Positions 5,738 to 24,891 are shown, counted from the first letter of the stretch. The stretch is 64,000 nt of DNA from an uncultured delta proteobacterium (GCA_963761995.1 CAVXIU010000003.1:8612-72611); one strand, 5' to 3'. The notes: generated by a model not told the origin, from the sequence alone. Numbers and translations are program-made.

Positions 5738-5777
5738 GCCCGCAGCCGCCGTCGTCTCGGGGTCGCTCGCGCGCCCA

Positions 5778-6413: not shown

Positions 6414-6432
6414 GGGAGCGAGTTGGCGGCGC

Positions 6433-7533
6433 TCAGCGGACGGTGACGAGGATGCGTTGGACGATGTTGTTTCCCATCCCCTGGTAGTTCCACGGTGCAT
6501 CGAGCGGTTGCACGTTGCCGGCAGCGTCGGTCGCGCGGCAGGCGAGTTCGTGCTCGCCCGTGGTGGCGTCCCAGTCGAACGTCCAGCCGCGCCAGGCGAA
6601 TTCGCCGACGGGCGTTGCGAGCGTCGCGTCTGTCCACTCGCCATCCACGGCGAGCTCCACCCGCTCGACCTGCCCGTTGCCCGACCACGCGCGGCCGGAG
6701 AGCGTCACGAGACCAGGTTCGACGAACCGGCGGCGGGAGAAGAAGTCCGGGATCCCGGGCGGGATAATGAGCGCCCGGGCCCGGATCCGCGAAACGGGGT
6801 CGCCGGGATCGTCGGCGTCGCGCTGGTAGCGATAGGCGACGGCCTGCTGGAAGCCGTCGAACGCTTCCGATACCACCTCGATCGACGTCAGCCACTTCAC
6901 GCTCGTCATCCCGTACCAGCCCGGGACGATGAGACGGAGCGGGAAGCCGTGCTGTGGCTCGAGCGCACGTCCGTTCATCTCATACGCGAGCAGGACCTCG
7001 GGGCGGGTCGCGTCGGACACGGAGAGGCTGCGGGCATAGCTCTGCTCCTGCTCGCCCTGTATCCCGCGGTCCGCAGCCCGGAAGACGACTTCGACCGCGT
7101 CTGCCGCCAGACCGGCGTCTTCCAGCAACGCGCGAAGCGGCGTGCCGGTCCACTCCGCCGTCCCGATCGCCTCGCCGAGCCACGGCAGGCTCACCGGGCG
7201 AGGGGTCAGCCAGCCTCGCCCGTTGCCGGCGCACTCCAGCGTGACCGGGAGCGTGCGACGCGGTCGAGCGCGAATCGACTCCAGCGTCAGCTCAAGCGGC
7301 CGGCGAACACTGCCGCCGACGGTCAGCCGCCAGCTTGCGGGATCGGCGAGTGGGATATCCCAGTGCGCGACGAGGTAGTGAAGTCCGGTGGGCGTCAGGT
7401 CCTGCCGCATGGCCTCGAGCGGCATCCCGCGGTTGCGGAACGCAAGCTGGAGCTCTTCGGGCAGCAGCGGACCGTCCGTCGGCTCGAGCGAGTGCGCGGC
7501 TCCGAGGACCTCGGCCGGCGTCTCGGGTTGCAT
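6433..7533 (-). CDS. Sulfite oxidase-like molybdopterin oxidoreductase
   Basis: Mo-ligand LECAGN, HGFPLRLIVPGWYGMTSVKWL, C-terminal dimerisation domain (CRATD). Confidence 0.92.
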   Translation of the reverse strand: MQPETPAEVLGAAHSLEPTDGPLLPEELQLAFRNRGMPLEAMRQDLTPTGLHYLVAHWDIPLADPASWRLTVGGSVRRPLELTLESIRARPRRTLPVTLECAGNGRGWLTPRPVSLPWLGEAIGTAEWTGTPLRALLEDAGLAADAVEVVFRAADRGIQGEQEQSYARSLSVSDATRPEVLLAYEMNGRALEPQHGFPLRLIVPGWYGMTSVKWLTSIEVVSEAFDGFQQAVAYRYQRDADDPGDPVSRIRARALIIPPGIPDFFSRRRFVEPGLVTLSGRAWSGNGQVERVELAVDGEWTDATLATPVGEFAWRGWTFDWDATTGEHELACRATDAAGNVQPLDAPWNYQGMGNNIVQRILVTVR

Positions 7534-7573
7534 GTCAAGAGTCTCTCAACAGCACGCTGGGCTGTCAGCGACC

Positions 7574-8326
7574 TTAGTTCCACCGGACGGGAACATTGGT
7601 TCCAGCCGCACCGGCATAGGCCTCCTCAAGCAACCGCTCGGGGTCGAGGAGCACGATCCCGTGGCGCCGCGTCTCGAGCAGTCCCGCCTGACGGAGCTCC
7701 CGCAGCGCTCGAACTACGACCTCGCGCACGGTGCCGACGGCATCGGCAAGATCCTGCTGGCCGACCGCGGCCACGAGCTCCGGGCCGGTCTGGCTCTCGG
7801 ACGCGAGATCGAGAAGGTGGCGGGCGACTCGCTGCCGGACGGTCGCGAACGTACTGCCCGGTATCTCCGTGATGAACGACAGCACCCGCTCGCTCAGCTC
7901 GTCGAGTAGAGCACGCGCAACGCGCGCATCGCGCTCGGCGGCGCGCTGCACCACCGATGGGCGGAAGGCGAGCAGTTCGGCGTCGGTTAGCGCCTGGATC
8001 GTCGCGGGCAGCGAGAACGGGGACGCGAACAGCGACACCACCCCGATGAGCGCACCCGGCCGGCAGTAGCGGACGGTCATCGTCCGCCCGTCGGGCGCCG
8101 TCACGTACACCCGGATGAGACCCGACACCACGACCTCGAGGTGGGCCGACGTGTCGCCCTCCCGGTGGAACGTCGAGCCGGCCGGCACACGCAACCGCGA
8201 CGCCTCGCCCGTGATCCCGCCGAGCGCCTCGGGCGACAGCGACCGCAGATGGGAAAGCTCGATCGCGGCGCGCGCGTCCTCGTCGAGCCGGGCCCCGCCG
8301 GGTTGCAAGCCACGCCCTGGCGCCAT
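7574..8326 (-). CDS. Crp/Fnr family transcriptional regulator
   Basis: cNMP-binding fold and HTH QQDLADAVGTVREVVVRAL; start uncertain. Confidence 0.85.
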   Translation of the reverse strand: MAPGRGLQPGGARLDEDARAAIELSHLRSLSPEALGGITGEASRLRVPAGSTFHREGDTSAHLEVVVSGLIRVYVTAPDGRTMTVRYCRPGALIGVVSLFASPFSLPATIQALTDAELLAFRPSVVQRAAERDARVARALLDELSERVLSFITEIPGSTFATVRQRVARHLLDLASESQTGPELVAAVGQQDLADAVGTVREVVVRALRELRQAGLLETRRHGIVLLDPERLLEEAYAGAAGTNVPVRWN

Positions 8327-9057
8327 GCCCCGAAGGCTAAATGCCAACCACCGCGAGGTGCATGCCCCGGCGAGCGACGCGCCGGTGCCTCCGACGCGTC
8401 GCGGGCACCGCCCGCGCACACCCCGCCGCACCAGCCCCACCGTGTGCTCCAAGGCGCCCAGCCCCGCTGCGCCAGGCTCCGCGCATTGCGGAAGCACGTT
8501 GGCGGGCCGTGCTCCTGCACCGCCAGTCGCCCGATCACCTCCGGAACGACAAGCTCGCCCCCACCGCGTTCCCGCTTCGCGCGCTGAGCGAGCATCACCG
8601 CTCGCGCACCAGCCGTGGTTCGAGAACAGGAGCAGGCGTCTCGTTCGGCACCATCGAGACGACCCCTCCGGACGACCTGCGAATGCCCGGTCCGACCGCC
8701 GCGTCACGCTCGCATTCGCCCGCGAAGCGACAGCGAAGCGCCGGGAGCTGGAGACCCTCGGAGCTCGTCCAGAGCGGGCGTCGGCCGAACGCTGTCTGAG
8801 ACGCCCGCTTGTCAAGGAGCAGCGGGCGTCTTCACCGGCGCGGAGCCGAGGTGGGCGCCGAGATTCCAGATCGATCGGGGTGGGCCTCGCGCCGTTGTTG
8901 TCGAAGGCGGTGAGCGGTAGCGGTCGGAGAGCCCGTCGAGCTCAAGCTGCCAGGTCGCGGCGGGATCGCTCAGCCCGGCGATGGCAGGACGTCGCGCCCG
9001 TGGCCACGACGCTCGACCCACAGGTCGGTCCGTTGGCTCTGAATGTGCTCGCCCACG

Positions 9058-9250
9058 TCATCTCCTCTGCAGGAAGTTCAGCACCGCGGCTGTGAAGAGC
9101 CCGCGGCCCGTGTCCATCGCCGCGTGTCGCTGGCCGGGCTTGACAACGACCCGGCAAGTCAGGGAGCGACACCGCAGCGCCTCGCCGGACGCCTTGAACG
9201 GGTCAGGGCTGTCGCCGCCTGCGAGTAGCAGCGTCGGTACGTAGAGTTTC
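9058..9250 (-). pseudogene. C-terminal fragment of an alpha/beta hydrolase
   Basis: VPTLLLAGGDSP...GQRHAAMDTG..LF...VLNFL with no N-terminal part. Confidence 0.6.
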
Positions 9251-9550
9251 TGGAAGCGTCTGGGTTGAAGGCGTGGTCGCGGGTCGCTCGCTCTTCGCGG
9301 GGGATCGTGTGGGCGGCGGCGACGCGGAAATCCGGGCCCGGACCGTGGCCCGTCGCCGAACCTCAGGCCCCGGGGATGCGGAGCACTGGACTGACTGGCC
9401 GTCGCTGCCCCGGAAGAGCGGGGACCCACGGCGCTCGTCGTCCTGGCCTTGTCGCCCCAGCGCCGTTGACCTGCTGGAGCGTTGTCCGTGCGAGTCTCCT
9501 GGGGCTCAACCCGGCTGGAGTGCCCGGCGAGGTACCCTCGCCGCACCGGA

Positions 9551-10147
9551 TCAGTGTCGAAGGGCACGCACGCCTGCGGGAAGCGCATCCGGAGGACGAA
9601 CCGGAGGCGGGCGAGCGCGTACTCGTAGCCGGCGCCGCTGAGGTTCGTGCCGGCGACGAAAACGATGGCGTTGGCGGAGGAGACCGAGTCGCTGAGCACG
9701 GCCGCGCCGAACGCGCCGGCGTAGCAGGGAGCCTCCTTGGCCAACTCGAGGCCCAGATAGCCGGCCGCCGAGGCGATCCGGCGGTCTCGGACGCTGGTGT
9801 GCCTGCGTCGCGTCAGGTCGTGGGCCGCCTTCGACAGCGCGTTTGTGCTCATCCCCGTCTGTGCGAGCAGCGACCAGGTAGCGCGCAGGTTCGCTCGCAG
9901 CCCCACACTCCACGCCGCGTAAGTGGCGGTGAGGGAACACGAGCGCGTGCCAAGAGCCCACTCCGCCGAGCGCGCCCGAGGCGACCAGCAGAACACCTGC
10001 GGCGGTCGCGACCCCATCCAGCGCGTAGGTCGAGACGGCGGTGGCGGTGACGGTGGCCGCCCAAGAGCTGAGCAGCCGGCGGCGACCTGCGGGGACCACG
10101 GGCTCCGGTGCATTTACGGTCACGTCCTGCGTATCGAGGACGCTCAT
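9551..10147 (-). pseudogene. Frameshifted membrane protein
   Basis: Hydrophobic segments continue across two frames, shift near 9935. Confidence 0.55.
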
Positions 10148-10500
10148 CGCTGTAACACCCCCTCAGTGTCGGCGTGCCGCCGAAGTGCTCGACGGCGACC
10201 GCCGCCGCGCGGTGTGCGTCAAACGACCGACATGAGAACACGGCGATGAAACAGCGGCCCGAGACCTCGTCGGCATGGACGGTGATCGAGCTGGTCTCGA
10301 TGAATTGCATCGCGGACCAACCCTCGAGCTCGCCGTCGCCGAACCGCTCGTGCGCCAGCGCGCCGTGGGCCTGCATCGCGATGGCGAGGATCAGCGCGGG
10401 CACGAACATGCGGATGCTGTCGGGGTTCTCCAGCCGTTGGAGCGCGCAGCCGTGCAGATCGATCGCCGCAAGCATGCCCCAGGGCGCATAGGTCTCGCCT
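10144..10500 (-). pseudogene. S-adenosylmethionine decarboxylase-like proenzyme, frameshifted near its 3' end
   Basis: IDLHGC...SAMQFIETSSITVH...VFSCRSFD; natural VLQR-stop end is out of frame at a G run; start unclear. Confidence 0.65.
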
Positions 10501-10678
10501 GGGTTGGAAGCGGGAATGGCGCGCTGCCTGCTGGCCTCGGTGCGAAGTGCCTCGGTTATGTTGCAGGCCCGTTCAACCAGCACTGGTCGGCAGGTGTTGC
10601 GCCAGGGACCTGACCGCCACGGTGGCGCGGTGCGGGACCGATCGAACTGCGCGCCGGCATCGAGCGACCCTAAATTTC

Positions 10679-11530
10679 TCACTTGCGGCCCAGTGCCGAG
10701 AGCGCAGGGGAGGGAGCGAACGGATGGCGTGAGAAGAAGGCGGTCAGAGCCTTCGTCATGGCGCCGGGATTCTGCACGTGCAGCAGGTGCGTCGCGTCGG
10801 GAAGCTCGAAGGCCTCGACGTTCGGCAGCCAGTCGAGCAGGAGGTCGCGTCGTTCGCGGAACACGGGGATGCTGTGCTCTCCGAGGACGGCGAGCGCCGG
10901 CGAGGCGATGCGAGCGGCTTCCTGTCGGCCGAATGACCACTGCAGCACCGCGGGCAGTTCCTGGCCGAAGAACGTCTCAGCGTCGGCCACAGCCTGGTCG
11001 ACGGCGCCCGGGAGCGCCTGCTCGAGCGCGGCGCGGTAGTCGGGCCCGCAGACACCGCGCATCCAGGTGTCGACGGCCCTCGCCTTGTCGCCCGCGCGGA
11101 AGCGCTCAAGCGCAGGCTCGACGACCGTTGTCACCATCTCCGCATGCAGGGGGCTAGGCGCTGCGGGCCGGGCCGCGTCCAGCAGCGCAAGGGATTGCAC
11201 GGCGTCGGGGGCGTCCAGTGCCAGCTGGAGCGCCATGCTCGCGCTCGAGGAGTGGCCCACGACGTGCGCGCGCTCGATCCCGAGGTGGCTCATCAGCGCC
11301 CGGCAGTGCTTCGCCTGCTGCGCGAAGCCGACCGCACCCGGCAGGGCGCCACTTCCTGCGTAGCCCGTACGGTGGTAGCGGAGCACGGTGTAGCGGTCGG
11401 TGAGCGCGCGCTGCTCGATCAGTGGCCGGAAGAAGTCGGCGCAGACGCCTGCGTGTATGAGCACGACCGGCTCGCCGGAACCGCAGATCTCGTACTCGAG
11501 CTCGATGCCGTCGATGGGTGCCCGCTGCAT
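10679..11530 (-). CDS. Alpha/beta hydrolase
   Basis: GEPVVLIH, nucleophile elbow GHSSS, C-terminal ATHLLH. Confidence 0.88.
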   Translation of the reverse strand: MQRAPIDGIELEYEICGSGEPVVLIHAGVCADFFRPLIEQRALTDRYTVLRYHRTGYAGSGALPGAVGFAQQAKHCRALMSHLGIERAHVVGHSSSASMALQLALDAPDAVQSLALLDAARPAAPSPLHAEMVTTVVEPALERFRAGDKARAVDTWMRGVCGPDYRAALEQALPGAVDQAVADAETFFGQELPAVLQWSFGRQEAARIASPALAVLGEHSIPVFRERRDLLLDWLPNVEAFELPDATHLLHVQNPGAMTKALTAFFSRHPFAPSPALSALGRK

Positions 11531-11594
11531 CTGCCTCAGTCCTCGTTCGCGTCGACGGTTACCTGTCGGCATCGCGAGCCCCGCCATCTCTCCG

Positions 11595-12434
11595 CTACCG
11601 ACGCTCGATTACCTCATGGATGAAGGCGATCACCTCGGGTGCCGCTGGGTTGATCAGGTGGCCACCGCTGACCAGCGCGGTGCGCGCGTTGGGGAGGACG
11701 GCTGCCATCGCTGTGGTCGGCTCGCGGAGCTCGGGCCGCGAATCGGTTGCCGCCACCAGCAGCGCGGGCTGCTCGATGGTGGCGAGCGTGGCGGCGTCGG
11801 CCGGTATCCACCACTCGCCTTGCAGCTCGGCCAGGATCGCCGGGCCGTTCTCGGTCAGGATCCGCCGAAGCTCCTCCGGGAACGAGTCCCACGCACCGTC
11901 CCCGAGCACTTCGCCGATGAGCGCCTCGGCAACCACGTCGACACCCGCCTGCGCTGCCACCTTGCGCAGGTGGTCGGCCAGCGCATCCACCCATTCGGCC
12001 GTCGCCGGCGCGAGTTCGCGCGACGCATCGCCCTCGAGCACGACCAACGCACGCACCCGCTCGGGATAGCGCAGCGCAAGGTCGATCGCCACCGTGCCGC
12101 CGTAGCTGCGGCCGATGACCACCGCCGGAGCGGCCGCCAGCGCGTCGAGCAGGGCGGCCGCGTCGTCGGCATGCTCGGCAACGCTGGTGCGGTCGTAGGG
12201 TGCCGGGCGCTCACTGCGCGTGCAGCCGCGACGGTCGTAGGAGATCACGCACCCGACTCGGGCCAGCTGCCCGACCGCGTCGCTCCACACCAGTGCTGAG
12301 CTGCCGGCCCCGTGAATGCAAAGTATCGGGGCGCCGCTCCCGTGCTCCTCACAGTAAAGCCGCACGCCATTCACCGTGAGCGTCCTACCTTTTTCACGGT
12401 GAAGGTCAGATGTGACTGTCGGTGTCGCCGGCAT
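11595..12434 (-). CDS. Alpha/beta hydrolase
   Basis: CIHGAG, YDRRG, GRSYGG, GGHL. Confidence 0.88.
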   Translation of the reverse strand: MPATPTVTSDLHREKGRTLTVNGVRLYCEEHGSGAPILCIHGAGSSALVWSDAVGQLARVGCVISYDRRGCTRSERPAPYDRTSVAEHADDAAALLDALAAAPAVVIGRSYGGTVAIDLALRYPERVRALVVLEGDASRELAPATAEWVDALADHLRKVAAQAGVDVVAEALIGEVLGDGAWDSFPEELRRILTENGPAILAELQGEWWIPADAATLATIEQPALLVAATDSRPELREPTTAMAAVLPNARTALVSGGHLINPAAPEVIAFIHEVIERR

Positions 12435-12527
12435 GGGGTACCTCCCGATGGTTGACGCGCGCGAGACGCTACGCCTGCGCTTCGCCTCCGTCATCGGGAG
12501 AACTCCCCATCCTGCGGCTGGGCGCCG

Positions 12528-14093
12528 TTAGTCGGCCAGGTCGTGCTGCATCGCGAACAGCGTGGCCCCAACGCGGGTTGAGACGCCGAGCTTGGCGTAG
12601 ATGTGCTCGACGTGGTGGCCCGCGGTCTTCTCCGTGATCACGAGCGCGTAGGCGATCTGCCTGCTCGTGCGACCCTGGGCGAGGAGGCGCAGGACCTCGA
12701 CCTCACGGTCACTGAGCCCGGCTGGGTGACCCTGACGCACGTTCAGCGCTACCGCGCCCGCCGCCTCGAGTACGGCGTCGACCGTCCGCTTCTCGAGCGC
12801 CCCGGTTCGGACCATCTCGCCGAGCTCCGTGCGAGCATCCTCCGGGCGCAGCGCTCGCCGGTGCGGACGATCATGGGTCATCGCGTCACAGATGTCGGCG
12901 GCGGCCAGGACGCGTGCCCCGACGCTCAGCTGCGCGGCCGTGGCTCCTCGGTGGTAGCCGGAGCCGTCGAGTCGCTCGTGATGGCAGCCGGCGAGCAGGG
13001 CCAGCGGCGCGAGCGCGCCAGAGCGCTCGAGCACGCGCTCCGTGTAGTAGGGATGAAGGCGAACGCGCTCCCGCTCGCCGACGCTCAGCGGCCCGGGCTT
13101 GTCCCAGATCCCGTTCGGCACCGCGACCCTGCCGACATCATGGAAGAACCCCGCGTTACGGACGTCCGAAACCTCGGCCTGCGAGCAGCCGAGCGCCTCG
13201 GCTGCCGCCGCGGCGAGGTCGGCCACGCGAGCGGAATGCCCGCGCAGGAAGCCGACCTTGATATCGGTGAACTCGCCGAAAGCCTGCGCCACCGACGCCA
13301 GCCCTGGCCGTGAGATCGTCGCGACCGGCTGCGGCTCGACGTCGAGGATCCGCTCCCACGCGTCGGGAACGTCCGCCGCCCGCTGCAGCGCCTCGGGCTC
13401 GGCGAGTGCAGCATCGACGATCTCCGGGTCATAGCCATGATCGCGACGCCCCGTGAGCGCCTCGATCGCCGTCTCGCGATCGCGCGCCTCGGTGATCGCG
13501 ACAAAGTCGTGAACGACGCGAACGACACGCAACGGCCGGGATATCTCCTCGCCGGCCAGCTTCCCGGGCACCCCCTTGCCGTCCCAGCGCTCCGTCACCT
13601 GTCCGAGCGCGCGCTCCACCTCGTCGGGGAGATGCAGGCGCCGCGCGAGCAGCCTGCCGCCTTCGCAGAGATTCGCGGCCGCGTGCTCGAACTGCTTCTG
13701 GCCCGTGACGAGCATCTTCGCGACCCGGCGCGCGCGTTCGGGTAGCGGCCTGTCGTCCGCGAACCGGCTCACGAGATGCCGCAAATCTTCGCGCGGCTCG
13801 GAAGCCGGCCCCGTGACGCTCGCGCCGCGCTGGAAGTGGATCTCGTCACCGCCCACCCAGCTCGCGAAGTACGGGGCGGCCGCGGTGCAGCCCACGTGGA
13901 TCAGCAGAGCGACGTAGTAGACCTCCGAGCGCTCCTCGACGCTGCAGCCGAGCCGGTCCGCCAGCTCAAGCGCCGATAGGCACACCCCAAGCTCGTGCTC
14001 GAGCGGCTGGCCGAGCCCGAGATCGGTCGCCAGCGAAAGCGCCGCCATCAACTCCGCCAGGCGGATGTGATCGTCGGGGCGGGCTGCCGCCAC
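12528..14093 (-). CDS. Tandem HD-GYP phosphohydrolase domains fused to a LuxR HTH
   Basis: ERWDGKG, HDVG, HHERLDGSGYH, C-terminal LSDREVEVLRLL...HIYAKLG. Confidence 0.9.
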   Translation of the reverse strand: MAAARPDDHIRLAELMAALSLATDLGLGQPLEHELGVCLSALELADRLGCSVEERSEVYYVALLIHVGCTAAAPYFASWVGGDEIHFQRGASVTGPASEPREDLRHLVSRFADDRPLPERARRVAKMLVTGQKQFEHAAANLCEGGRLLARRLHLPDEVERALGQVTERWDGKGVPGKLAGEEISRPLRVVRVVHDFVAITEARDRETAIEALTGRRDHGYDPEIVDAALAEPEALQRAADVPDAWERILDVEPQPVATISRPGLASVAQAFGEFTDIKVGFLRGHSARVADLAAAAAEALGCSQAEVSDVRNAGFFHDVGRVAVPNGIWDKPGPLSVGERERVRLHPYYTERVLERSGALAPLALLAGCHHERLDGSGYHRGATAAQLSVGARVLAAADICDAMTHDRPHRRALRPEDARTELGEMVRTGALEKRTVDAVLEAAGAVALNVRQGHPAGLSDREVEVLRLLAQGRTSRQIAYALVITEKTAGHHVEHIYAKLGVSTRVGATLFAMQHDLAD

Positions 14094-14393
14094 CGCGCGA
14101 GTCTAGACCGGACGTCGCTCGGCCCGAGGAGGCGGCGTCGACGCAAGGACCCACGCCACGCTGCCGCCACTGCGAACACGCGAGCGTCCGGGCCAGCGCC
14201 CCCCGACGCTCGCTGTCGTGCGGATGCGGTCGTCTCCGCTGAGGCGCCGCGGACGATCGCCGTGGGCGAGGTCCGGGCGCGAGGAGAGGCGCGGCCCGAG
14301 TCGTTGTGACGATCGCATCGACCACCAGCGGTCGTGGCCACGAGCGAGCAGCGGGAGTAGTGGCCTGCTGCGGCTGACGCCGTTTCGGGTTGT

Positions 14394-15096
14394 TTAGAGC
14401 TGCAGGCCGGCGCTGGCGGACATCATCGGTGCGCGCCGGGCGTGGACGGTGGCGATGATCTCTTCGGTGTCGATGCCCTGCAGGTAGATCGAGGTGGTGC
14501 CGAGGTTGGCGTGGCCGAGTTGGCGCTGGATCACGTTGAGCGGGACGCCTTCGCGGGCGAGCTCGACGGCGTGGGCGTGGCGCAGCTGGTGCGGCGCGAA
14601 GCGGCGCCGGATGCCCGCTTGCGCGGCGAGCCGGCGGAACTCGACGCGCGCGTTGGCGCTCGACCACGGCCGTCCGCGGGTCGGGCCGTCGATGACGCAG
14701 AACAGCGGTCCGATCGGCAGTTCAACCCGGGCGTCCAGCCAGGGGCGCAGTTGCTCCCAGCCCCAGGTGTCCATGCCGATCTCGCGGCGGCGACCGCCCT
14801 TGCCGTTGCGCACCAGCAGTGAGCCGCGCCGGGCGTCAAGGTCGCGCTCACCCAGCCCGAGTGCTTCCTGGATGCGCAGCCCGCTGCGCCAGAGCACGAT
14901 GATCAGCGCGCGCAGCCTGAAGCCGTGTCGGTCGTCGCCGGTCTGGCGCATCACCGCAATGATCTCCTCCACGGTCGGCGGGTCGGCGGGATAGAGCCGC
15001 CCCTTGTTGCGGGGCGGGCGCCCGGCGTGATAGCCCGGCAGCGTCGCCGGCGAACGCCGCCTGCCGGCGGCATCGAGGACTGGTGAAAACGGTCAT
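14394..15096 (-). CDS. Minimal tyrosine recombinase (catalytic domain), one-base frameshift near the start
   Basis: R (SGLRIQE), K (GKGG), HQLRH, LGH, Y (TSIYL); RBS GGAGG and ATG at 15096 are one base out of frame at a TTTT run. Confidence 0.85.
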
Positions 15097-15343
15097 GGGA
15101 GCCCTCCTCCCAATCGCAGCGGGCAGAGCCCGGTGCCCTACCAGCGCTCGCGCGTCCAGCAAAGGGGAGCGGTCGGAGACCGGGATAGCTTCACCCGGGC
15201 GAAGCGGAAGTGCGTGACTCGTCGACCACAGGACTGAGTGTCGTCCAAGGAAGAAGCAACCGGCGGTCAGCCGAGATGCCTTCTTGCGCGCGGATGCGGG
15301 CGGGGCGACCGCGGGGCACTGTGAAGCAGTGCCCGGGCCGCCG

Positions 15344-16078
15344 TCATTCGGCGACCCGTACGCGATAAGGGCCGGCAAGGCGTGAGGCGGCTGTGCGGCG
15401 CTCCGGCGCCGAGCGGCTGGCTGGCGCGAATGCGCTCCAGGTGAACCACTGACCGAATCCGCGTTGCAGCGTCCGCGGGCCGTTCATCGTCAGCTGGCCG
15501 GCTCGGATCGCGCCGCCCAGATCGGCCCGTCCCAAGTAGACGCGGTACAGCGTGGCGGTGTCGACGATGACCTCGAGGTCGATGTCGAAACCGGGATGCT
15601 GGAGGCAGACTGAGACCTCGGAGGGCTCGAGGACCATCCAGTAGCGCCGCTTGGGGTCGAGAAAGGCGAACTGAACAACCGTTCGGTTGGGTGGGAGCCG
15701 CTGGCGATCGGCGTGGCGGGCCATCCAGACGATCAACAGGGAGGGATCGAGTTCCTCGGGGCGCGGCTCGGTGAACGACCACGTCGCCCCCCACTCGCCG
15801 ATCGCCTGCACGACCGGCTGGAGGTCACGCCCGGCGGGCGTGAGGCGATATTCGAGCGTGCGGCCTTTGGGGCCCGTCCTGCGCTCGATGACCTCGGCCC
15901 GCTCGAGCGCGCGCATGCGGTCGGTGAGGACCGAGCGCGAGATCCCTGGGAGGCCGCGTTGGAGCTCGTTGAAGCCGCTTGCGCCGCCGAGCATCTCGCG
16001 CACGATCAGAAGCGTCCAACGGTCTCCGAGGATCTCGGTGGCATGCGCGACCGGGCAGTACTGGTCGTAGCTGAACAT
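15344..16078 (-). CDS. HxlR family regulator with C-terminal SCP2-like domain
   Basis: YCPVA..LGDRWTLLIVRE, EYRLTPAG; divergent from the FAD oxidase. Confidence 0.9.
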   Translation of the reverse strand: MFSYDQYCPVAHATEILGDRWTLLIVREMLGGASGFNELQRGLPGISRSVLTDRMRALERAEVIERRTGPKGRTLEYRLTPAGRDLQPVVQAIGEWGATWSFTEPRPEELDPSLLIVWMARHADRQRLPPNRTVVQFAFLDPKRRYWMVLEPSEVSVCLQHPGFDIDLEVIVDTATLYRVYLGRADLGGAIRAGQLTMNGPRTLQRGFGQWFTWSAFAPASRSAPERRTAASRLAGPYRVRVAE

Positions 16079-16217
16079 CGCGCCACGATGCTAGCCGCGG
16101 GTCGGCCAGCAGGTCTCCAACAGGTCTGTTACTCGAACCGGTTGGTTCGAAAGCAGAACTATTCAACCCGGGCCGGCAAGCCTACGTTGCTCGCATCGCT
16201 ACAGGTGGGAGGACGAG

Positions 16218-17642
16218 ATGACCGCCATCCAGACATCACAGGCACCGCCCCTGGAGACGGTCGCGTTCGACGAGCTCGGCGGATCGTTGCGCGGCGAGCT
16301 GCTACTGCCGACCAGCCCCGGCTACGACACCGCCCGCAGGATCTGGAATGGCGCGGTCGACCGCCGTCCGGCCTGCATCGCCCGCTGCACGGGCGTGGCC
16401 GACGTGGTCGCGGCGATGCGCTTCGCGCGCGAGCGCGACTTGGAGATCGCCGTACGGGGCGGGGGCCACAACGTGGCCGGCACCGCGGTCTGCGACGACG
16501 GGGTCGTCATCGACCTCTCGGCGATGCGGGCCGTGTGGGTCGACCCCGCCGGCCGCACGGCCTGGGTGCAGGGCGGCGCTCTGTGGGGCGACGTCGACCA
16601 CGAGACGCAGGCCCACGGTCTGGCCACCACCGGCGGCATCATTGGCCACACCGGCGTCGCCGGGCTCACCCTCGGCGGCGGCATCGGCTTCCTCATGCGC
16701 AAACACGGACTCACCGTCGACAACCTGCTTGCCGCCGAGGTGGTCACCGCCGACGGCCGCATCGTCCGGGCGTCTGCCGACGAACACCCCGATCTGTTCT
16801 GGGCGCTGCGAGGCGGCGGCGGCAACTTCGGCGTCGTCACCTCTTTCCGGTTCGCTCTACACCCCGTCGGCCCGACCGTGCTGGCCGGGCCCGTCTTCTG
16901 GGCGGCCGAGGACACCACCGACGTGCTGCGCTTCTACCGCGACTTCGCCGCCGAAGCGCCCGAGGAGCTCGGCAGCGTCGTCAGGCTCGGCACCGTCCCG
17001 CCGCTGCCGGTCATCCCCGAGGACCTGCACTGGCGACCGGCGATCGCCGTCGCCTGCTGCTACGCCGGGGCCGTCGAAGACGGCGAGCGTGCGGTGCGGG
17101 ACCTCCGCCGGTTCGGGACACCGCTCGTCGACCTGCTCGCACCCTCACCGTACGCCGCCTTCCAGGGCGGCCTCGACGACACCGTCCTCCACGGATGGCA
17201 CTACTACTGGAAGGCGACCAACCTCGCCGGCCTCACCGACGACACCATCGCCGTCATCGCCGATCACGCCTACGCCGCCAACTCGCCCCGCTCGTACGCG
17301 GCGATGTTCCACATGGGTGGCGCCGTCGCCCGAGTCCCCCACGACGCCACGGCCTACGCCGGTCGCGACGTGACCCACAACATCATCATCGACGCCGTCT
17401 GGCTCCCCGACGAGTCCGGCAAGCACGCCGCGGCCGAGACCGCCTGGGCGCGGCGGTTCCTCCAAGCCCTCCAACCGCACCACGCCGGCAGCGTCTACGT
17501 CAACTTCCTCGACTCCGACGACGACCCCAGCCGGGTGCGAGAAGCCTACAGCGATCACACCTACCGGCGACTCGCCGAAGTCAAGGCCAAATACGACCCT
17601 GACAACGCCCTCCACCACAACAAGAACATCCAGCCCGCCTAA
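16218..17642 (+). CDS. FAD-linked oxidase (BBE-like)
   Basis: VRGGGHN, LRGGGGNFGVVT, YVNF, KYDPDN. Confidence 0.93.
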   Translation: MTAIQTSQAPPLETVAFDELGGSLRGELLLPTSPGYDTARRIWNGAVDRRPACIARCTGVADVVAAMRFARERDLEIAVRGGGHNVAGTAVCDDGVVIDLSAMRAVWVDPAGRTAWVQGGALWGDVDHETQAHGLATTGGIIGHTGVAGLTLGGGIGFLMRKHGLTVDNLLAAEVVTADGRIVRASADEHPDLFWALRGGGGNFGVVTSFRFALHPVGPTVLAGPVFWAAEDTTDVLRFYRDFAAEAPEELGSVVRLGTVPPLPVIPEDLHWRPAIAVACCYAGAVEDGERAVRDLRRFGTPLVDLLAPSPYAAFQGGLDDTVLHGWHYYWKATNLAGLTDDTIAVIADHAYAANSPRSYAAMFHMGGAVARVPHDATAYAGRDVTHNIIIDAVWLPDESGKHAAAETAWARRFLQALQPHHAGSVYVNFLDSDDDPSRVREAYSDHTYRRLAEVKAKYDPDNALHHNKNIQPA

Positions 17643-18139
17643 CGCCCGCGCCGCGCCGACCGGCGCGACGTGTTCGTGATGAACGCCGACGGCCCACACC
17701 CGCGTAGAGCTGACGAACGAAGCCGGCGTCGCTGGCGAACCAGAGTGGCGCCCCCCGCGCCCGGCCATCTCCGATCCCCGCACACCGGCACCCAGCGTCG
17801 CCTCCAGCCCAGACCACAAGCAAGCGACCGCGCCGCGAGCAGAGCGGGCACGCTCACCGATGCGCTCCTTGCTCTCGCTTCGGGACGAGCAGCAGGCGTC
17901 CGGCGCGACGCCGGCTTGGCTCCTCCTTCTCGTCCCGAGCGAGCGTCTCCTTTGTGGCCACCGACGCTGCCCGGCAGGAGCGAGCGTCTACGACGGCTGA
18001 CGAGGCGCGTCCGTTGCGCAACCAGTCGCCGCCATCGCGTCGGCTCGAGCTCGCCGCCGCCGCCCGCGACGCAAGGTCCGGCATCAGTCACATCGATGCG
18101 CGGTTGACGATCGCTCCTCGGCGAGGAGAGTGTGGGCGT

Positions 18140-19284
18140 GTGTTCCGGACCGCGGCAGCCTTCGCCTTGCTGGCGGCGGCCCTGGCCGTTCGGGCCGGGG
18201 CGCAGGCGCCCGGCCTGGTCCAGACGGGTGGCTTCGCGGGCGGCGACTCGCCGCGGATGGTCGGCCGCGCCGCCGTCTGCCTGAAGGGACGCTTGGACCG
18301 CGGTCGAGCCGGCCCGGTTTCGTGGTGGTTTGAGTATGGGCCGACGACGGGCTATGGCGCGCGGACGTCGCCGCGACCGAACGAACCGCCGGTTGACGAG
18401 CCGCTTGAGTGGGGTTGCGACATCGCGTCCGCAGACGTGCACGCGGATGTTCACGGGCTCGACTACGGGCAGACGTTCCACTACCGGCTCGTGGGCATGT
18501 TCGCCGACGGGAGGGTCGAGGCCGGCGACGACCGGACGTTCACGGTGCCGCACGCGCCCCTGCGGCCATCGCAGCGCGTGGCGTTTGAGCATCGACGGAC
18601 CCCGGGAGGCGCGACGATCCTGACGAACGTGCGCGTGCTCGACGCGCCGCGCGGGGCGACGGTCGTGATCGACCGCTGCGTGGGGACGGATTGCCGGGAG
18701 CTGGCGCGCGCGGGGATCCGGTCGCGCCGACAGGTCGTGCTGCGCCGGGTCACGCTGAAGCGCTTCCGACCCAAGCCCGGCGAGATCGTCATTCCGGAGT
18801 CGACCTTCCCGCCGTACCTCACGATCTCGGTCTCTCCCCCCGGAGACCAAGGGGTCGGCACGTCGACGACGGTCCGTCCACGCAGGTCGCGGCCGCCCGC
18901 GGTCCAGAGCGATTGCGTCCGCGCGTTCGTACGCAAGTGCGTCTCGCTGACGGCGACGGTGAGCGGCCCGCGGCTGCGACGACTCCTACTGGAGGACATC
19001 CTGCACGGCTCCACGGTCGCGATCGACTGTCGTGGCGGCGGATGTCCGCGCCGGCGCTTCTCGCGCGTCGTCCAGGTGCGGGCCGGGCGCGGCCCCTACC
19101 GGAGTCTGAGCTGTCCGACTACACGGGGTTGCGGCCCGGCGCCGTGATGAAGCTCTACATCACGCGTCCCGGCTCGTTCGGCGCGTACCGGGCGCTGCGC
19201 ATCACGCGCGCGAGCGTGCTGATCAGCGGCTACCGCTGCATCGCGCTCACGAGCCGGAGTCGTCTCGTGGCGTGCCCCGCGTAG
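18140..19284 (+). pseudogene. Secreted hypothetical protein, frameshift near 19105
   Basis: Signal-like AAAFALLAAALA, Fn3-like WFEYGPTTGYG...YRLV; continues in a second frame to 19284. Confidence 0.55.
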
Positions 19285-19308
19285 ATCTCAAGGTGGATGC
19301 CAGGCTGT

Positions 19309-20109
19309 TCACGGCGCCGCGGCGTGTGCGACGGCGGTTAGCGAGCCCGCATCGGTGCGTGCGAGCACCCGCACGATCGGCACGTCGAGCGCCGATTGGT
19401 AGGGCGCCAGTCTCTCCTGCATCTCCGGGTGGCTCGCTGCGACCACGCCGACGCTTCCGAGCGGAACGTTCATGGCCGCGAAGTGCTTGTGATGGTTCTT
19501 GTTGATGTTGCGGTACCGGCGTTCCTCGTCGCGGAGTCGCCGCAGCGAGCCGGAGCCGACGGCGACGCGCACGTATGAAGCGGCGATCGGGGCGGCACGC
19601 CCGCACTCCGCAGCTCCCTGCTGCACCCAGCGGCGCGCCGCTGTCAGCTGCTCGGGCAACATCCAGTTGAGGAGGACGCCGTCGGCTACCGAGCCAGCGA
19701 GACGGCACAAGCGGGGTCGCATGGCTGCGACGACGATGCGAGTGCCCGGCGGAAGGATCTCGCGGAGCTCGGCGACGGCGCGCCGTAGAGCGTCGATCTG
19801 CGGGTGTAGTTGGCCGGAGCCGATCCCGATCCAGAGCCTCGCGGGATCGATCCCGAGGCGGTCGATCTCGGTCACGATCTGGACCGGCTGATGCCGGTCG
19901 AGGGGAAGGACGCCGACGCCTAGCTCGAGTTGTGCTGCCCCGGCGGCGAGATGCGCGATCGTCTCGAGCCCGGAGGCGGCCGGCTCGTCGTTCGACCAGA
20001 GCGAGTGGTATCCGAGATCCTCGCAGCGGGCGGCCAGATCCCGGGCGAGTCCGGCTTCGAGGCCTGCGGTGATGCCCAGTCCCCGGGGTGTCGGCGTGGA
20101 GGGCATCAT
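19309..20109 (-). CDS. LLM-class flavin-dependent oxidoreductase
   Basis: GYHSLWSND, LGVGVLPL, ADGVLLNW; coupled to the P450 stop. Confidence 0.85.
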   Translation of the reverse strand: MMPSTPTPRGLGITAGLEAGLARDLAARCEDLGYHSLWSNDEPAASGLETIAHLAAGAAQLELGVGVLPLDRHQPVQIVTEIDRLGIDPARLWIGIGSGQLHPQIDALRRAVAELREILPPGTRIVVAAMRPRLCRLAGSVADGVLLNWMLPEQLTAARRWVQQGAAECGRAAPIAASYVRVAVGSGSLRRLRDEERRYRNINKNHHKHFAAMNVPLGSVGVVAASHPEMQERLAPYQSALDVPIVRVLARTDAGSLTAVAHAAAP

Positions 20110-21497
20110 CGCTTCCGCCGCGCGCGGGCCGCCGTGGTCTCGCGTGCCGCCGGCTGGATGGGAACGGCGCCCTTGGGCCGCAGGGTGATGCCCTCGGTGT
20201 CCAGCGGCACATCCTGCTGGTCGCTGTGGATCCGGAAGCGCTGCAGCAGGAACGCCACGGCGATCACCGTCTCGAGCATCGCGAAGTGCGTTCCGATGCA
20301 CGCGCGTGGGCCGCCGCCGAACGGGAAGTAGGCGTGCGAATGCCGCGCGCGCTCGCGCTCTAGGGTGAAGCGCGCGGGCTCGAACGCCTCAACGTCGTCC
20401 CAGAACTGCGGATGGCGGTGCGTCGCGAACTGGCTCACGACGACGTTTGAGCCCGCGGGGATCGAGTAGCCGCCGATCTCGTTCCCGGTCTCCGAGAGCC
20501 GGCCGAGCGCGTAGGCGGGCGGGTACAGGCGCATCGCCTCCTTGATCGCCCTCGCGGTGCGCTCGAGGGCCGGTATGTCTTCGAGCGTCGGGGCTCGGCC
20601 GTCCAGGACCGCATCCAGTTCCTCGTGGACGAGCCGGTGCTCGCCTGGATGGCGGCCGAGGAGGTAAAGCGTGAGAGTCACCGCGGTGGACGTGGTTTCA
20701 TGCCCGGCGAGCAGGAAGATCAGCGCCTCGTCTCGCACCTGTTGGACGTCCATCGCCTCGCCGGTGTCCGGATCGCGGGCCTGCAGCAGCCGCGAGAGGA
20801 GATCCTCGCCACCGGCTCCGGCGTGCTGGCGCTGGGTGATCAGCTCGTCGACCACGCCGTAGAGCGCCCGCCGGGCGCGCGCTGCCCTGCGGTTGTCCGG
20901 GGTCGGCCAGGACGCCGGCGGCGCCAGCGGCGCCGTTGCGCGCCGGAACGTGTGCCGGTTGAGCATCGGGAACGCCGAGTCGAGCACGTCGCCGGCCCTG
21001 GCCACGTCGTCGCCGAAGATCGCCCGCCCGACGACTCGGAGCGCCAGCCGGACCATCTCGGCGTTGGCGTCGACGCTGCCGCCGTTCCGCGCGGCACGAT
21101 CCCAGCGCTGGGCGACCGCGACGGCCTCCTCGGCCATGAGCTCAGAGTACGTCGCGATCTGCCTACGGGTGAACAGCGGCTGGACGAGCCGCCGCTGCCG
21201 CCTCCAGAGCTCGCCCTCGCTGGTCAGCAGCCCGCCGCCGAAGGCTTCCGCGATTTGCCTATAGAACCGGTTGCCCTTCGAATAGCCCGCGCGCGACCCG
21301 GTGAGCACGGCCTTGACCCCATCGGGATGAAACACGCAATAGAGATCGAAGCGCACGCCGGGCGGTCCCACCCCCAGACGCACGACGTCCCCGTACTCAC
21401 GCATCACACGCTCGTACGTGCGGACCTGGCTCCGGCGCAGGTCAAGCGCCGAGCCGAGCAACAGGTTGGCGCGCGCGTGGGGTGGCGCTGCGGGCAT
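20106..21497 (-). CDS. Cytochrome P450
   Basis: I-helix AGHETT, ExxR (EAMR), heme ligand FGGGPRACIG. Confidence 0.95.
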   Translation of the reverse strand: MPAAPPHARANLLLGSALDLRRSQVRTYERVMREYGDVVRLGVGPPGVRFDLYCVFHPDGVKAVLTGSRAGYSKGNRFYRQIAEAFGGGLLTSEGELWRRQRRLVQPLFTRRQIATYSELMAEEAVAVAQRWDRAARNGGSVDANAEMVRLALRVVGRAIFGDDVARAGDVLDSAFPMLNRHTFRRATAPLAPPASWPTPDNRRAARARRALYGVVDELITQRQHAGAGGEDLLSRLLQARDPDTGEAMDVQQVRDEALIFLLAGHETTSTAVTLTLYLLGRHPGEHRLVHEELDAVLDGRAPTLEDIPALERTARAIKEAMRLYPPAYALGRLSETGNEIGGYSIPAGSNVVVSQFATHRHPQFWDDVEAFEPARFTLERERARHSHAYFPFGGGPRACIGTHFAMLETVIAVAFLLQRFRIHSDQQDVPLDTEGITLRPKGAVPIQPAARETTAARARRKR

Positions 21498-22867
21498 CAG
21501 ACCTTGGGGTCGATGTTGTGGTTGAGCCGGAAGGTGTTGTCGGGGTCGTAGCGCCGCTTGAGCTCGACGAGCCGCTCGACGTTGGGGCCATAGGCGTGAC
21601 GGACGCGGTCGTAGTCGTCGGCCGACAGGTAGTTCGTGTAGGAGCGGTCGGCCATGTAGGGCGACAGCGCGTCGAAGGTCTCGCGCGCCCATGCGACGCC
21701 GGTGTCCGTCTGGCTCGGGTCGGTCCATTGCGAGATCAGAAAGAGGTTGTAACCCGGCTGCCTGTGCGGGTAGGCCGTAGCCGTCGGGGAGACGCGCGTG
21801 ACCGCACCGTGGAAATGCTCGACGACAAGTGCGCACAGCCCGCTGGGCGCATGCTCGAACGCCCTGGTCATGACCTCGACGGCCGGATCCGAGAGCTCCG
21901 AGAAGAACGCCGACTTCCAATAGGCGAGCACGCCCGCCGGCGACAGCCAGTCGACCCCGGTGTTGACGACCGGGTACGGCATGCGCTGGATCATGTCCGC
22001 GGCCGGCGAGCCGAACCGGCGCAGTGGGCGCAGGTCGGTCTCGGCCTGGTCGGCGTCGTCGCCCGCATGGCAGACCGCGATTCCGCAGAGCTTCGCCCCC
22101 GATCCGTCGGGCGCATGCAGGAAGACGGCCTGGGTGGAGAACTCGTCCGGGAGGTTGGTGGCGAACTCGCGGTAGAACGCGAAGAGCTGCGGCGCGACCG
22201 CGAGAGGATGCAGCACCGGACCGCCGAGAACCGTGGCCAGCGGGTGCGTGCGGTACTCGAACGAGCTCACCACACCGAAGTTGCCGCCGCCGCCACGGAG
22301 CGCCCAATACAGATCGCGATCGCCGTCCTCACTCGCGGTGACGACCTCGCCCGACGCGAGCACGACCTCGGCCGACAGCAGATTGTCGACGGCCATCCCG
22401 TGCTTGCCCATCAGCCAGGCAATACCTCCGCCGAGCGTGAGACCCGCGATCCCGGTAGTCGAGACGACGCCGCTGGGGGTCGCGAGCCCAAAGGCAGCGG
22501 TGGCACGGTCGAGCTCACCGACTGTGACGCCCGCCTGCGCGCGCGCCGCTCGTCGCGCCGGATCGACGTGGACGCCCTTCATCAGCGAGAGGTCGATCAT
22601 CAGCCCGCCGTCGGTGACCGCCGTGCCGGCGACGTTGTGACCGCCGCCACGAACCGAGATCTCCAGTCCTTCGCGCCTGCCGAAATTGACGGCGTCGGCT
22701 ACATCCGCCGTGTGCAGACAGCGCGCAATCACCGCGGGATGCCTGTCGATCAGTCCGTTGTGGACGAGACGGACCTCGTCGTAACCGCGCTCGCCCGGAG
22801 CAAGAACCGGTCCCGACAACACCTCCCCGAGCAGTTGGACGGAACCTTCGCTCGTCGCGCCAGACAT
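21497..22867 (-). CDS. FAD-linked oxidase (BBE-like)
   Basis: VRGGGHN, LRGGGGNFGVV, YTNY, RYDPDN. Confidence 0.93.
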   Translation of the reverse strand: MSGATSEGSVQLLGEVLSGPVLAPGERGYDEVRLVHNGLIDRHPAVIARCLHTADVADAVNFGRREGLEISVRGGGHNVAGTAVTDGGLMIDLSLMKGVHVDPARRAARAQAGVTVGELDRATAAFGLATPSGVVSTTGIAGLTLGGGIAWLMGKHGMAVDNLLSAEVVLASGEVVTASEDGDRDLYWALRGGGGNFGVVSSFEYRTHPLATVLGGPVLHPLAVAPQLFAFYREFATNLPDEFSTQAVFLHAPDGSGAKLCGIAVCHAGDDADQAETDLRPLRRFGSPAADMIQRMPYPVVNTGVDWLSPAGVLAYWKSAFFSELSDPAVEVMTRAFEHAPSGLCALVVEHFHGAVTRVSPTATAYPHRQPGYNLFLISQWTDPSQTDTGVAWARETFDALSPYMADRSYTNYLSADDYDRVRHAYGPNVERLVELKRRYDPDNTFRLNHNIDPKV

Positions 22868-22890
22868 CCCATGCTCCTTCGGCAGGCAAT

Positions 22891-22925
22891 GGTACTGTAC
22901 CGACTGGTACAGTACCGATCGGTAC
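22891..22925. promoter_or_regulatory. TetR operator (overlapping palindromes)
   Basis: GGTACTGTACC-GACT-GGTACAGTACC overlapping GTACCGATCGGTAC, between divergent genes. Confidence 0.75.
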
Positions 22926-22939
22926 GCTACCAGAACATC

Positions 22940-23521
22940 ATGGGACGTGCAAGAACCTTCGACGCCGACGAAGCCTTGGACAGGGCGATGACCGTGTTCT
23001 GGACCAAGGGCTTTGAAGGAGCGTCGCTCTCGGACCTCACCGAAGCGATGGGAATCAACCGTCCCAGCCTCTACGCCGCTTACGGCAACAAGCAGGAGCT
23101 ATTCCGCAAGGCGCTCGAGCGCTACGGCGAGGGGCCGTCGTCGTACGAGCGCGAGGCCCTCGCCCAGCCAACCGCGCGCGAAGTCGCCGAGGGCCTGTTG
23201 CGCGGCGCCGCCGATGTGCAGACCGATCCACACACTCCGGCCGGGTGTCTTGCCGTCCTGGGCACAACGTACTGCGCCGAAGCCTCCTCGCCGGTCGGCA
23301 AGATCCTGATCGCGTCCCGCCTCGCCGGCCATGCCGCGATTCGCGAGCGCTTTGAGCGAGCCCGCGCCGAGGGCGACCTCCCGGCGGACGCCGATCCCAA
23401 GGAGCTGACCCACTACATCGGGACCGTCGTCTGCGGCATGGCCGTCCTAGCCGCCTCCGGAGCAACACGGGAAGAGCTCGAACGCGTCATCCAGCGCACC
23501 ATGCGCGCCTGGCCACAGTGA
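22940..23521 (+). CDS. TetR family regulator
   Basis: MGRARTFD...FWTKGFEGAS...GINRPSLYAAYGNK. Confidence 0.93.
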   Translation: MGRARTFDADEALDRAMTVFWTKGFEGASLSDLTEAMGINRPSLYAAYGNKQELFRKALERYGEGPSSYEREALAQPTAREVAEGLLRGAADVQTDPHTPAGCLAVLGTTYCAEASSPVGKILIASRLAGHAAIRERFERARAEGDLPADADPKELTHYIGTVVCGMAVLAASGATREELERVIQRTMRAWPQ

Positions 23522-24003
23522 GGACGCTGCCGCCTGCGTCCTGTCTCCCTGACCGACCAACGGCCGCGGGCTCATCCGTGCCGCTCCCTCATGGAAGGAA
23601 GCGTCTCGGCCGAGGCGGCGCTTGCTCTCGCCGCGGTCGAGCAGCGGAAGCGCAGCTCGAGACCCCTGCTCGTCCACGAAACCGCAAGTCTTCGGTGGGA
23701 GCGCTCGATCCACGGCCGACTGCTCCGTCGGACGATCAGGGCGGAGCGGTGCCCCCGGGCAATACCTGCGGAGCCGCACTACTTTTGGAGGGCGGCATAG
23801 CTCAGCCCGCGACTACCCGCTCTGGGGATCAGAGTGCTCCTGCTTCGGGAGGAAAGAGCGGTGGCGGTGCCAGTGTCCTTCTCGTCCGGAGGGGCGTGTG
23901 TCAGAGGTCCCCGACGACTTCCACTATCTCGTGAGGAGCGTGATCGAGGTGCTCTTGCCCTGGATGCGGCGGTGGCTCTCGGCGTGGTCACGTTCTGTGA
24001 GTT

Positions 24004-24837: not shown

Positions 24838-24891
24838 GACGCCCCTGTCCGGCATAGGATGATCTTCTAGTCACTGGAACGATATTCTCAT

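Follow-up and report, generated by a model that had tools for sequence, protein, structure and literature searches.

Can a tyrosine recombinase that consists of little more than its catalytic domain have sites and a function of its own? This question is raised by a gene in a 64,000-nt stretch of DNA deposited under the name of an uncultured delta proteobacterium (GCA_963761995.1, CAVXIU010000003.1:8612-72611), which in its full length is referred to here as the window. The gene (14394..15096, minus strand) encodes a member of a 233-aa recombinase family, is interrupted by one extra base and has P0001, at 98% identity, as its nearest protein. The gene is carried inside a module that is bounded by inverted sites, and it is the natural enzyme candidate for the array of such sites found in the window. 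We consider the chances somewhat better than even that the gene represents the dedicated recombinase of a module-shuffling system which works like the dif modules of Acinetobacter, with an enzyme and sites of its own. The family is large and uncharacterised and most likely drives a variant of site-specific module shuffling. In keyword searches of one library, no prior description of the recombinase family or of the site was found, which should not be taken as proof of absence in print.

At the domain level, PF00589 is the only Pfam match (103.3 bits against a cut-off of 27.1) and covers residues 41-205 of the 232-aa open frame. The first-pass annotation, made from the DNA alone, had recognized the full R-K-HxxR-H-Y set of catalytic residues. 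This was borne out by an alignment of 26 sequences, in which R74 and Y204 (numbered as in P0001) never vary and conservation is 90% or more at K99, H169, R172 and H195; the motifs are equally present in the translated frame of the window. The NCBIfam models for XerC, XerD, XerA, the integron integrase and the FimB/FimE (FimB/E) invertases all match this same part of the protein, and all score far under their cut-offs: 90.5 vs 335 and 80.4 vs 329.6 bits for the XerC/XerD equivalogs TIGR02224 and TIGR02225, 52.3 vs 222 and 30.3 vs 221 for the FimB/FimE-type invertase models NF007371 and NF007370, and 64.6 vs 265 for the integron-integrase model TIGR02249. As the last of these covers residues 151-207 only, no IntI-specific insertion is seen, in agreement with the annotation.

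No core-binding domain was found: only 40 residues precede the catalytic domain, they have no Pfam match and no helix is modelled before residue 42. This N-terminal arm is basic and proline-rich (D-x-x-G-R-R-R-S-P-A-T-L-P-G-x-x-A-G-R-P-P-x-N-K-G-R-x-Y-P-x-D-P-P) and is conserved in the alignment down to ~50% identity. The AlphaFold model (mean pLDDT 86) is confident for the catalytic domain, which is predicted to be Xer-like, and shows the first 41 residues without helix or sheet (pLDDT 67-81); the closest solved relatives by sequence and fold are XerA (4a8e, 5hxy), XerH (5jjv), XerD (1a0p) and IntI4 (2a3v). The architecture that had been proposed, a catalytic domain behind a short Pro/Arg-rich leader, is thus what the domain search and the predicted fold return. 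Comparison of the N-termini of homologues speaks against a truncated remnant, as 108 of the best 120 protein matches listed are 233 aa long. As judged from these sequences, the protein is a catalytic-domain-only tyrosine recombinase and not a remnant, and the short form is the norm in the close family. It is not typical of all relatives, because several at ~50% identity (P0169, P0171, P0186, P0190, P0192 and P0202 among them) are 300-354 aa long, with 70-125 extra N-terminal residues before the conserved arm. These extra residues may be an unrecognised DNA-binding domain, or the start codons may have been called too far upstream; PF00589 stood alone in all 11 longer relatives scanned, and five short ones (237-251 aa) were scanned too. 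Among 1.8 billion cluster representatives, the family has 48,007 matches at E <= 1e-3 and 956 at E <= 1e-30.

Where, then, would such an enzyme act? The gene lies in a 983-bp unit, measured from hexamer to hexamer (14264-15246), with two inward-facing inverted sites at its ends; the corresponding units in six relatives measure 935-989 nt. At the 5' border, the putative crossover hexamer (15241..15246, minus strand) is intact, reading GGACGA on the gene strand and TCGTCC on the plus strand, and homology borders between loci fall there. The three-box site around it (15220..15278, minus strand) is a weak copy (11.5 bits, E 0.019), the outer half of which doubles as a terminator-like hairpin behind an HxlR-type gene (stem 15274-15257). 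At the 3' border, a three-box site inverted relative to the upstream one (14225..14292, plus strand; 22.3 bits, E 7e-6) contains a mutated hexamer (14264..14269, plus strand), GGGCGA vs GGACGA, or TCGCCC vs TCGTCC on the gene strand; TCGTCC stands at the aligned position in L007, L027 and L081 (L numbers denote related loci). The first-pass annotation had placed the gene mid-island rather than at an att site, which does not hold, since recombination-type sites flank it on both sides. The suspected link to the palindromes of the island is upheld: these are parts of the three-box site and form inverted pairs here and in independent loci.

The site spans ~65 bp and consists of three copies of an 11-bp box, with the consensus GCGAGCGTCTC, around the hexamer GGACGA. 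The order is box 1, ~13 nt, inverted box 2, 2-3 nt, GGACGA, 3 nt and direct box 3, so that boxes 2 and 3 are inverted repeats flanking an asymmetric hexamer, which is the layout of a tyrosine-recombinase core site. The distance from box 1 to the hexamer is fixed, as lengths of 43-45 nt stand out among all GCGAGC...GGACGA pairs, with 42 occurrences. The sites were scored with R1, a sequence-only covariance model with 62 training sequences. In the window, R1 has 22 matches with E < 1e-3, 9 of which are among the training sequences; an earlier hidden Markov model (HMM) built solely from other genomes locates the same window sites.

It had been suggested that specificity might come from DNA hairpin structure or from an RNA, and neither idea was backed. 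Boxes 1 and 2 can pair in 69.2% of cells vs 67.9% in shuffles, a value that 63 of 500 shuffles reach, and for boxes 2 and 3 the observed value is reached by 32 of 500. Hairpin covariation of the boxes is thus not supported, the observed pairing being within the shuffled controls, and Rfam has no match up to E 1 on either strand of 14100-15450. Because the boxes pair no better than shuffled controls, they look like repeated protein-binding elements.

The tie between recombinase and sites was examined in 80 independent metagenome loci, which were fetched by protein similarity alone and none of which was used for the site model. Up to 300 nt upstream of the gene, 26 sites have the expected '+' orientation and none the wrong one; between 300 and 1000 nt upstream the numbers are 8 and 1, and up to 300 nt downstream 28 sites have the expected '-' orientation, again with none wrong. 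Inward orientation was thus found for 62 of the 63 flanking sites. At least one flanking site is present in 41 of the 80 loci, with sites on both sides in 19; among loci at least 78% identical, the fraction with at least one site is 27 of 34. In five recombinase-bearing genomes the sites cluster around the gene copies, and in one of them (G061) 7 of 10 sites lie within 16 kb of the gene. Across 101 genomes of the order, 13 have both recombinase and sites, 7 the recombinase only, 24 the sites only (23 when G122, an unpublished genome, is left out) and 57 neither. This corresponds to an odds ratio of 4.4 (Fisher p 0.005), which should be read with the consideration that related genomes are not independent and that many are incomplete.

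More distant recombinases (~70-75% identical) are often flanked by other sites, which again come in inverted pairs. One variant is a 10-6-10 palindrome, CTGCTTT-GCGCGA-AAAGCAG (L136, L137 and L050), and another is GTCGCTTT-CCATGC-AAAGCGAC (L163, L062, L156 and L165). Of 90 loci below 78% identity, 10 have the first and 6 the second near the gene; at or above this value, the numbers are 1 and 0 of 71 loci. The counts come from a looser search, the strict GCTTT-N6-AAAGC pattern having found few. An enrichment analysis of 8-mers in the flanks of 35-36 site-negative loci returned nothing that stands out. A variant site also marks an insertion. L039 and L041 have flanks that are 99.9% identical over 3.3 kb, and L039 has 897 nt more (L039:4735-5632 vs L041:4711-4735); the inserted DNA carries one zinc-type dehydrogenase-like gene and lies exactly at a 10-6-10 site (TCGCGCA|AAGCGG), 11 nt past the recombinase stop. 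The partial match between site type and recombinase clade is as would be expected if each enzyme reads its own flanking sites, even though the sorting is not clean.

Several points weigh against this assignment and should be considered together. GGACGA-type sites also flank 14 of 46 recombinases below 78% identity, so the clade-to-site match is only partial. In the sample of the order, 24 of the 37 site-positive genomes have no recombinase at E <= 1e-30. In five of these that were checked, no full PF00589 gene stands beside the sites; the PF00589 pieces seen are, in G118, a catalytic-domain fragment beside the sites and, in G164, short fragments that lie on a different contig. With so many site-positive genomes lacking the recombinase, either arrays persist without the enzyme or another enzyme serves them. 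Conversely, 7 of 20 recombinase-positive genomes have no site by this model. The model itself started from a seed pattern in which GCGAGC and GGACGA were obligatory, so that an invariant hexamer in the alignment is in part built in; the later profile hits all carry GGACGA. In addition, the core would place 2-3 unconserved bp between the hexamer and either box, an uncommon arrangement among sites of the Cre or Xer type, and an enzyme that has no core-binding domain may need partners.

The same numbers bear on the possibility that the recombinase is a frequent passenger, kept for instance for the resolution of plasmid multimers, and that the sites are served by another enzyme, such as host XerC/XerD in the manner of Acinetobacter dif modules. 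Beside the site-positive genomes that have no recombinase, this is favoured by XerC/D-like genes in all five genomes checked and by the assembly to which the window belongs, which has 29 sites and no intact recombinase copy. A passenger would, however, hardly account for a 62 to 1 orientation bias with fixed spacing of the sites around the gene, for different recombinase clades going with different flanking sites, or for the co-occurrence just described. Sites of the dif type are AT-rich in the centre, and the site found here would seem unlike them. We thus regard a passenger role as rather improbable, and the dedicated recombinase as the preferred explanation.

What moves between these sites can be read from the borders of homology. 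In the 10 pairs of loci that are at least 92% identical across the gene and have a true left border, homology starts 0, 0, 0, 0, 0, 1, 5, 7, 11 or 13 nt before GGACGA, and in 7 pairs it ends exactly at the last base of TCGTCC. Copies of the recombinase unit are up to 99.5% identical inside and differ in their outer half-sites. Sharply bordered shared units are seen in L023 and L030 of the same genome (1,721 nt at 98%) and in L028 and L034 (1,700 nt at 96%). Units that contain no recombinase have the same borders. The window has two copies of a 102-nt unit with GGACGA and TCGTCC as its borders (3975-4076 and 55631-55732); they show 3 differences in 102 positions and have different outer half-sites. 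For longer modules, L012 and L022 share 860 nt from TCGTCC on, L010 and L014 share 376 nt that end at GGACGA, and a 617-nt block lies beside the recombinase unit in both L030 and L135, in opposite orientations. From these borders we infer that exchange takes place at or in the hexamer, for short units and long blocks alike. Two other short units of the window, 8670-8770 and 52179-52279, are 101 nt long; with lengths of 102 and 101 nt, the size of short units may be constrained.

Much of this could also be produced by a self-mobilising element resembling an insertion sequence (IS), in which a ~1-kb unit moves only itself into pre-existing palindromic targets and the other modules are ordinary DNA or were moved accidentally in trans. 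The anatomy fits such an element: one gene with its own ribosome-binding site between inverted ends, 935-989 nt in six examples, several and often decayed copies per genome, and outer half-sites that differ around nearly identical interiors (up to 99.5%). However, units that have no gene, namely the 102-nt unit found twice and the long modules, share the exact hexamer borders, and the flanking 'targets' are conserved box sequences rather than arbitrary palindromes. Nor do the short units appear to be deletion derivatives of the recombinase unit, as 38 of 40 comparisons fall within the shuffled range; only the unit 8670-8770, in reverse and compared with L007 and L081, exceeds the shuffled maximum. 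We therefore consider an element that moves only itself unlikely.

An enzyme that flips only its own unit or a neighbour, and so switches the expression of an adjacent gene in the manner of FimB/FimE, would also be framed by inverted sites. FimB and FimE lack a core-binding domain and need host factors. The 'tyrosine-type DNA invertase' model NF007371 (198 positions; 52.3 bits here) describes proteins of the same size class, ~200-residue tyrosine recombinases in which the N-terminal domain is likewise missing, and the 617-nt module found in both orientations beside the recombinase unit (L030 vs L135) also speaks for such a switch. On the other side, the score is far under the family cut-off of 222, the N-terminal arm is a different one, there is neither a single fixed invertible switch nor a conserved neighbour available for switching, and modules are found in quite different contexts, beyond mere flipping. 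A local switch of this kind is thus very improbable.

In the preferred reading, that of a dedicated recombinase for module shuffling, the Xer-like, catalytic-domain-only enzyme would work in soil Thermoleophilia (Solirubrobacterales-type genomes) and would exchange strands at the hexamer. Its 40-residue basic, proline-rich arm, aided by box 1 or by a host factor, would replace the core-binding domain. The recombinase would invert DNA between inverted sites and would excise or fuse DNA between direct sites. As a result, single genes, toxin-antitoxin pairs, multi-gene blocks and the module of the recombinase itself would, with time, turn up as modules in new contexts and orientations. A more ambitious formulation, to which we give slightly less than an even chance, is that soil Thermoleophilia carry an undescribed, self-contained platform for gene exchange, in which a minimal recombinase, carried in its own module, inverts, excises and re-inserts whole gene modules at three-box sites with a 6-bp crossover. 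Such a platform would do an integron-like job with a dif-module layout, and recombinase clades would have co-evolved with their own site variants. If the enzyme indeed works on these sites, the shuffling of modules between inverted sites, known to date from Acinetobacter plasmids and host Xer proteins, would have an independent counterpart in abundant soil Actinomycetota, one that comes with a dedicated enzyme, and the way in which these genomes trade accessory metabolic and regulatory genes would be explained. The enzyme would be the smallest plausible stand-alone recombinase of its type and, as its sites are short and well defined, may serve as a compact recombination tool.

The comparison with known systems is closest for the dif modules. 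The dif modules of Acinetobacter plasmids are bounded by inversely oriented 28-bp pdif XerC-XerD sites on which host Xer proteins act. They are described (PMC13141974) as carrying toxin-antitoxin cargo, falling into two module classes by the inward half-site, undergoing inversions, deletions and exchange, and being found uniquely in Acinetobacter. Discrete gene modules between sites of alternating orientation, toxin-antitoxin cargo and modules in new contexts were all found here as well, whereas the present site is built from three 11-bp boxes and GGACGA, the system belongs to soil bacteria of Thermoleophilia type and a dedicated 233-aa recombinase is itself carried in a module. Integrons share with the present system mobile gene units that are separated by a recurring site, a tyrosine recombinase in the array and the occurrence of arrays that have no intact enzyme. 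In contrast to integrons, there is no IntI insertion, the sites alternate instead of pointing in one direction, many modules are multi-gene, no folded-single-strand signal is seen (pairing is not above shuffles) and the recombinase sits inside a module and not at the head of the array. The single-recombinase systems XerA and XerH are closest in solved fold and in sequence, and have one protein acting on a palindromic site, as would be the case here, but they have a helical core-binding domain, which is missing here, and resolve chromosome dimers at one site per chromosome, compared with tens of sites per contig. The classification of Smyshlyaev et al. (PMC8138268) gives a core-binding and a catalytic domain as the make-up of 'simple' tyrosine recombinases, from which the present family differs in having no core-binding domain. 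The same source mentions Rci of the R64 shufflon. Like the system proposed here, the shufflon has a number of sites facing either way, between which a single tyrosine recombinase can make multiple inversions; it, however, reshuffles the 3' ends of one pilus gene within ~2 kb, and here unrelated modules are spread over tens of kilobases.

Whether the copy in the window can still make the enzyme is a separate question. The gene starts, on the minus strand, with ATG 15096-15094, behind a ribosome-binding site that is called strong (GGGAGGAGGG, 15111-15102), and stops with TAA 14396-14394. As assembled, the frame of this ATG is nonsense and ends at 14848, with an 82-aa product. The catalytic frame is open from TGA 15095-15093 down to 14394, and its first standard start, GTG 14972, would give a 192-aa product that has no N-terminus. 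The first-pass annotation had located a one-base frameshift just after the ATG and this proved correct: at the T4 run (15086..15089, minus strand), four codon positions past the ATG, the alignment has one base fewer in all four closest DNA relatives (L007, L027, L051 and L081). The product of about 233 aa that was predicted when one T is removed agrees with P0001, which is 233 aa long and starts with MTVSPVLDAAGRRRSPATLPGYHAGRPPRNKGRLYPADPPTVEE, exactly the residues predicted. Homologues read GTCTC, GTTTC or GTGCC at this position, in frame. Contigs of relatives from four public runs omit one base at 15084-15088; as none of these runs is from the source sample, they confirm only the norm of the family. 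In a search for the source DNA, no public run was found to hold half of the sampled words, the best reaching 0.28.

As assembled, the recombinase copy in the window is inactive, since the enzyme cannot be made from it. Of the causes that had been proposed for the frameshift, slippage can be set aside: a programmed switch is unlikely given that the T4 run lacks conservation, that homologues have the gene in frame and that the assembled frame would require a +1 skip. Between the remaining two, real decay (a recent pseudogene) and a single-base assembly error, the evidence is about evenly balanced. An error is favoured by the coding sequence, which shows no decay, with a single residue (position 80) unseen among 108 homologues. 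It is also favoured by two other broken genes on the same contig, which suggest single-base assembly errors or decay: a phytoene-desaturase-like (Amino_oxidase) gene split over three frames (42993-44474, minus strand) and an alpha/beta hydrolase split over two (39283-40012, minus strand). Real decay is favoured by the state of the module, with its mutated downstream hexamer, weak upstream site and degraded stem after the stop, and by the frequency of pseudogenes in the family. Among genomes sampled from the order, 5 of 35 matches have in-frame stops and several are split, and three of the four closest relatives look broken (L051 with an 8-bp deletion and a TAG, L081 with a TAG and a 1-nt gap, L027 with a 1-nt gap).

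Inside the module, the leader (15097..15240, minus strand) holds the ribosome-binding site (15102-15111) and, just upstream of it, a small CAGCGG/CCGCTG-like palindrome. It is conserved over ~50 nt before the ATG in most of the 80 loci and over ~150 nt in the closest four. A promoter scan of 14100-15400 gave no sigma-70-like match. After the stop, a stem-loop (14349..14376, minus strand) has 2 mismatches in its 5' arm relative to the arm of L007, L027, L051 and L081; its motif has no match elsewhere in the window, and it resembles a terminator-type stem and differs from locus to locus. Two related small palindromes bracket the reading frame closely, in the window and at the same places in L007-L013. 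One, CAGCGG...CCGCTG (15115-15135), precedes the ATG by ~25-45 nt; the other, CAGCGGGAGC...GCTCCCGCTG (14349-14376), follows the stop. They may act as operator and terminator, or as another pair of binding sites. Outside the module, an extra palindrome of box-1/box-2 type, GCGAGCGTC...GACGCTCGC (14180..14213, no strand assigned), gives partial site-model matches on both strands.

The further sites of the window extend over 2230..60859, mostly in alternating orientation. They start at 2230-, 2397-, 3744+, 3936+, 4050-, 8631+ and 8741-, at 17843+, 17907-, 23596+, 25612+, 26247-, 28417-, 32564+, 52161+ and 52256-, and at 54555+, 55592+, 55707-, 59984+ and 60793-. The pieces between sites are either short units of 53-102 nt or of 0.57, 0.75 and 0.98 kb, or long blocks of 2.6-7.6 kb with a cargo of ordinary accessory genes, which include an aldehyde dehydrogenase, a molybdenum oxidoreductase, Crp, hydrolases, an HD-LuxR regulator, HxlR, BBE-type oxidases and a P450. 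No site was found between 32631 and 52161, where a carotenoid cluster and an IS110-family transposase lie. The transposase gene (DEDD_Tnp_IS110 and Transposase_20) occupies 34346-35332 on the plus strand, and IS110-type genes are also seen in 5 related loci.

In the whole 7.7-Mb assembly, the HMM from other genomes has 29 matches. All are on four small contigs, 18 on C3, 5 on C14, 4 on C9 and 2 on C2, and none is on the 7.0-Mb contig C6. The site-bearing contigs may be plasmids or islands, or may stem from a different organism in the bin. They are not set apart from C6 by base composition; the tetranucleotide distance between C3 and C6 is 0.0089, within the range of C6's own 60-kb chunks (max 0.0115). 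The PlsY-like gene of the window, a second and divergent copy, says nothing about the taxon of C3. The assembly (G000) has one full recombinase copy, that of the window, and two fragments. These are C16:5540-5731, 81% identical over residues 149-212, and C11:16827-16976, 60% identical over residues 176-225, each a remnant of a further copy. The recombinase is absent, at E <= 1e-40, from all of 60 genomes related to the assembly, 8 of which belong to the same genus, and a search of these 8 for an empty site or synteny found no DNA match longer than 92 nt.

Elsewhere, a relative is encoded in 551 of 604 matched stretches of a metagenome scan and in 520 of 613 matched stretches when one genome per species is considered; the best 80 of the latter are nearly all metagenome-assembled genomes labelled Solirubrobacterales, Solirubrobacteraceae or Thermoleophilaceae. 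The neighbourhood of the gene is not conserved: in 81 loci, apart from the gene itself and the frames that overlap it, no gene cluster is present in more than 21. In 12 loci, the recombinase has a PIN-type gene upstream. A divergently placed PIN-domain (VapC-like) gene with a small partner, ~0.8 kb upstream, was noted in L008-L015, L023, L028-L031 and L034, where toxin-antitoxin and recombinase make up a 1.5-1.7-kb module. Finally, a 1,203-nt repeat with sharp borders and CGCGTG...CGCGTG ends, 99.5-99.7% identical between its copies (L041:1485-2687, L039:1485-2687 and L170:1614-2816), is probably an insertion sequence.

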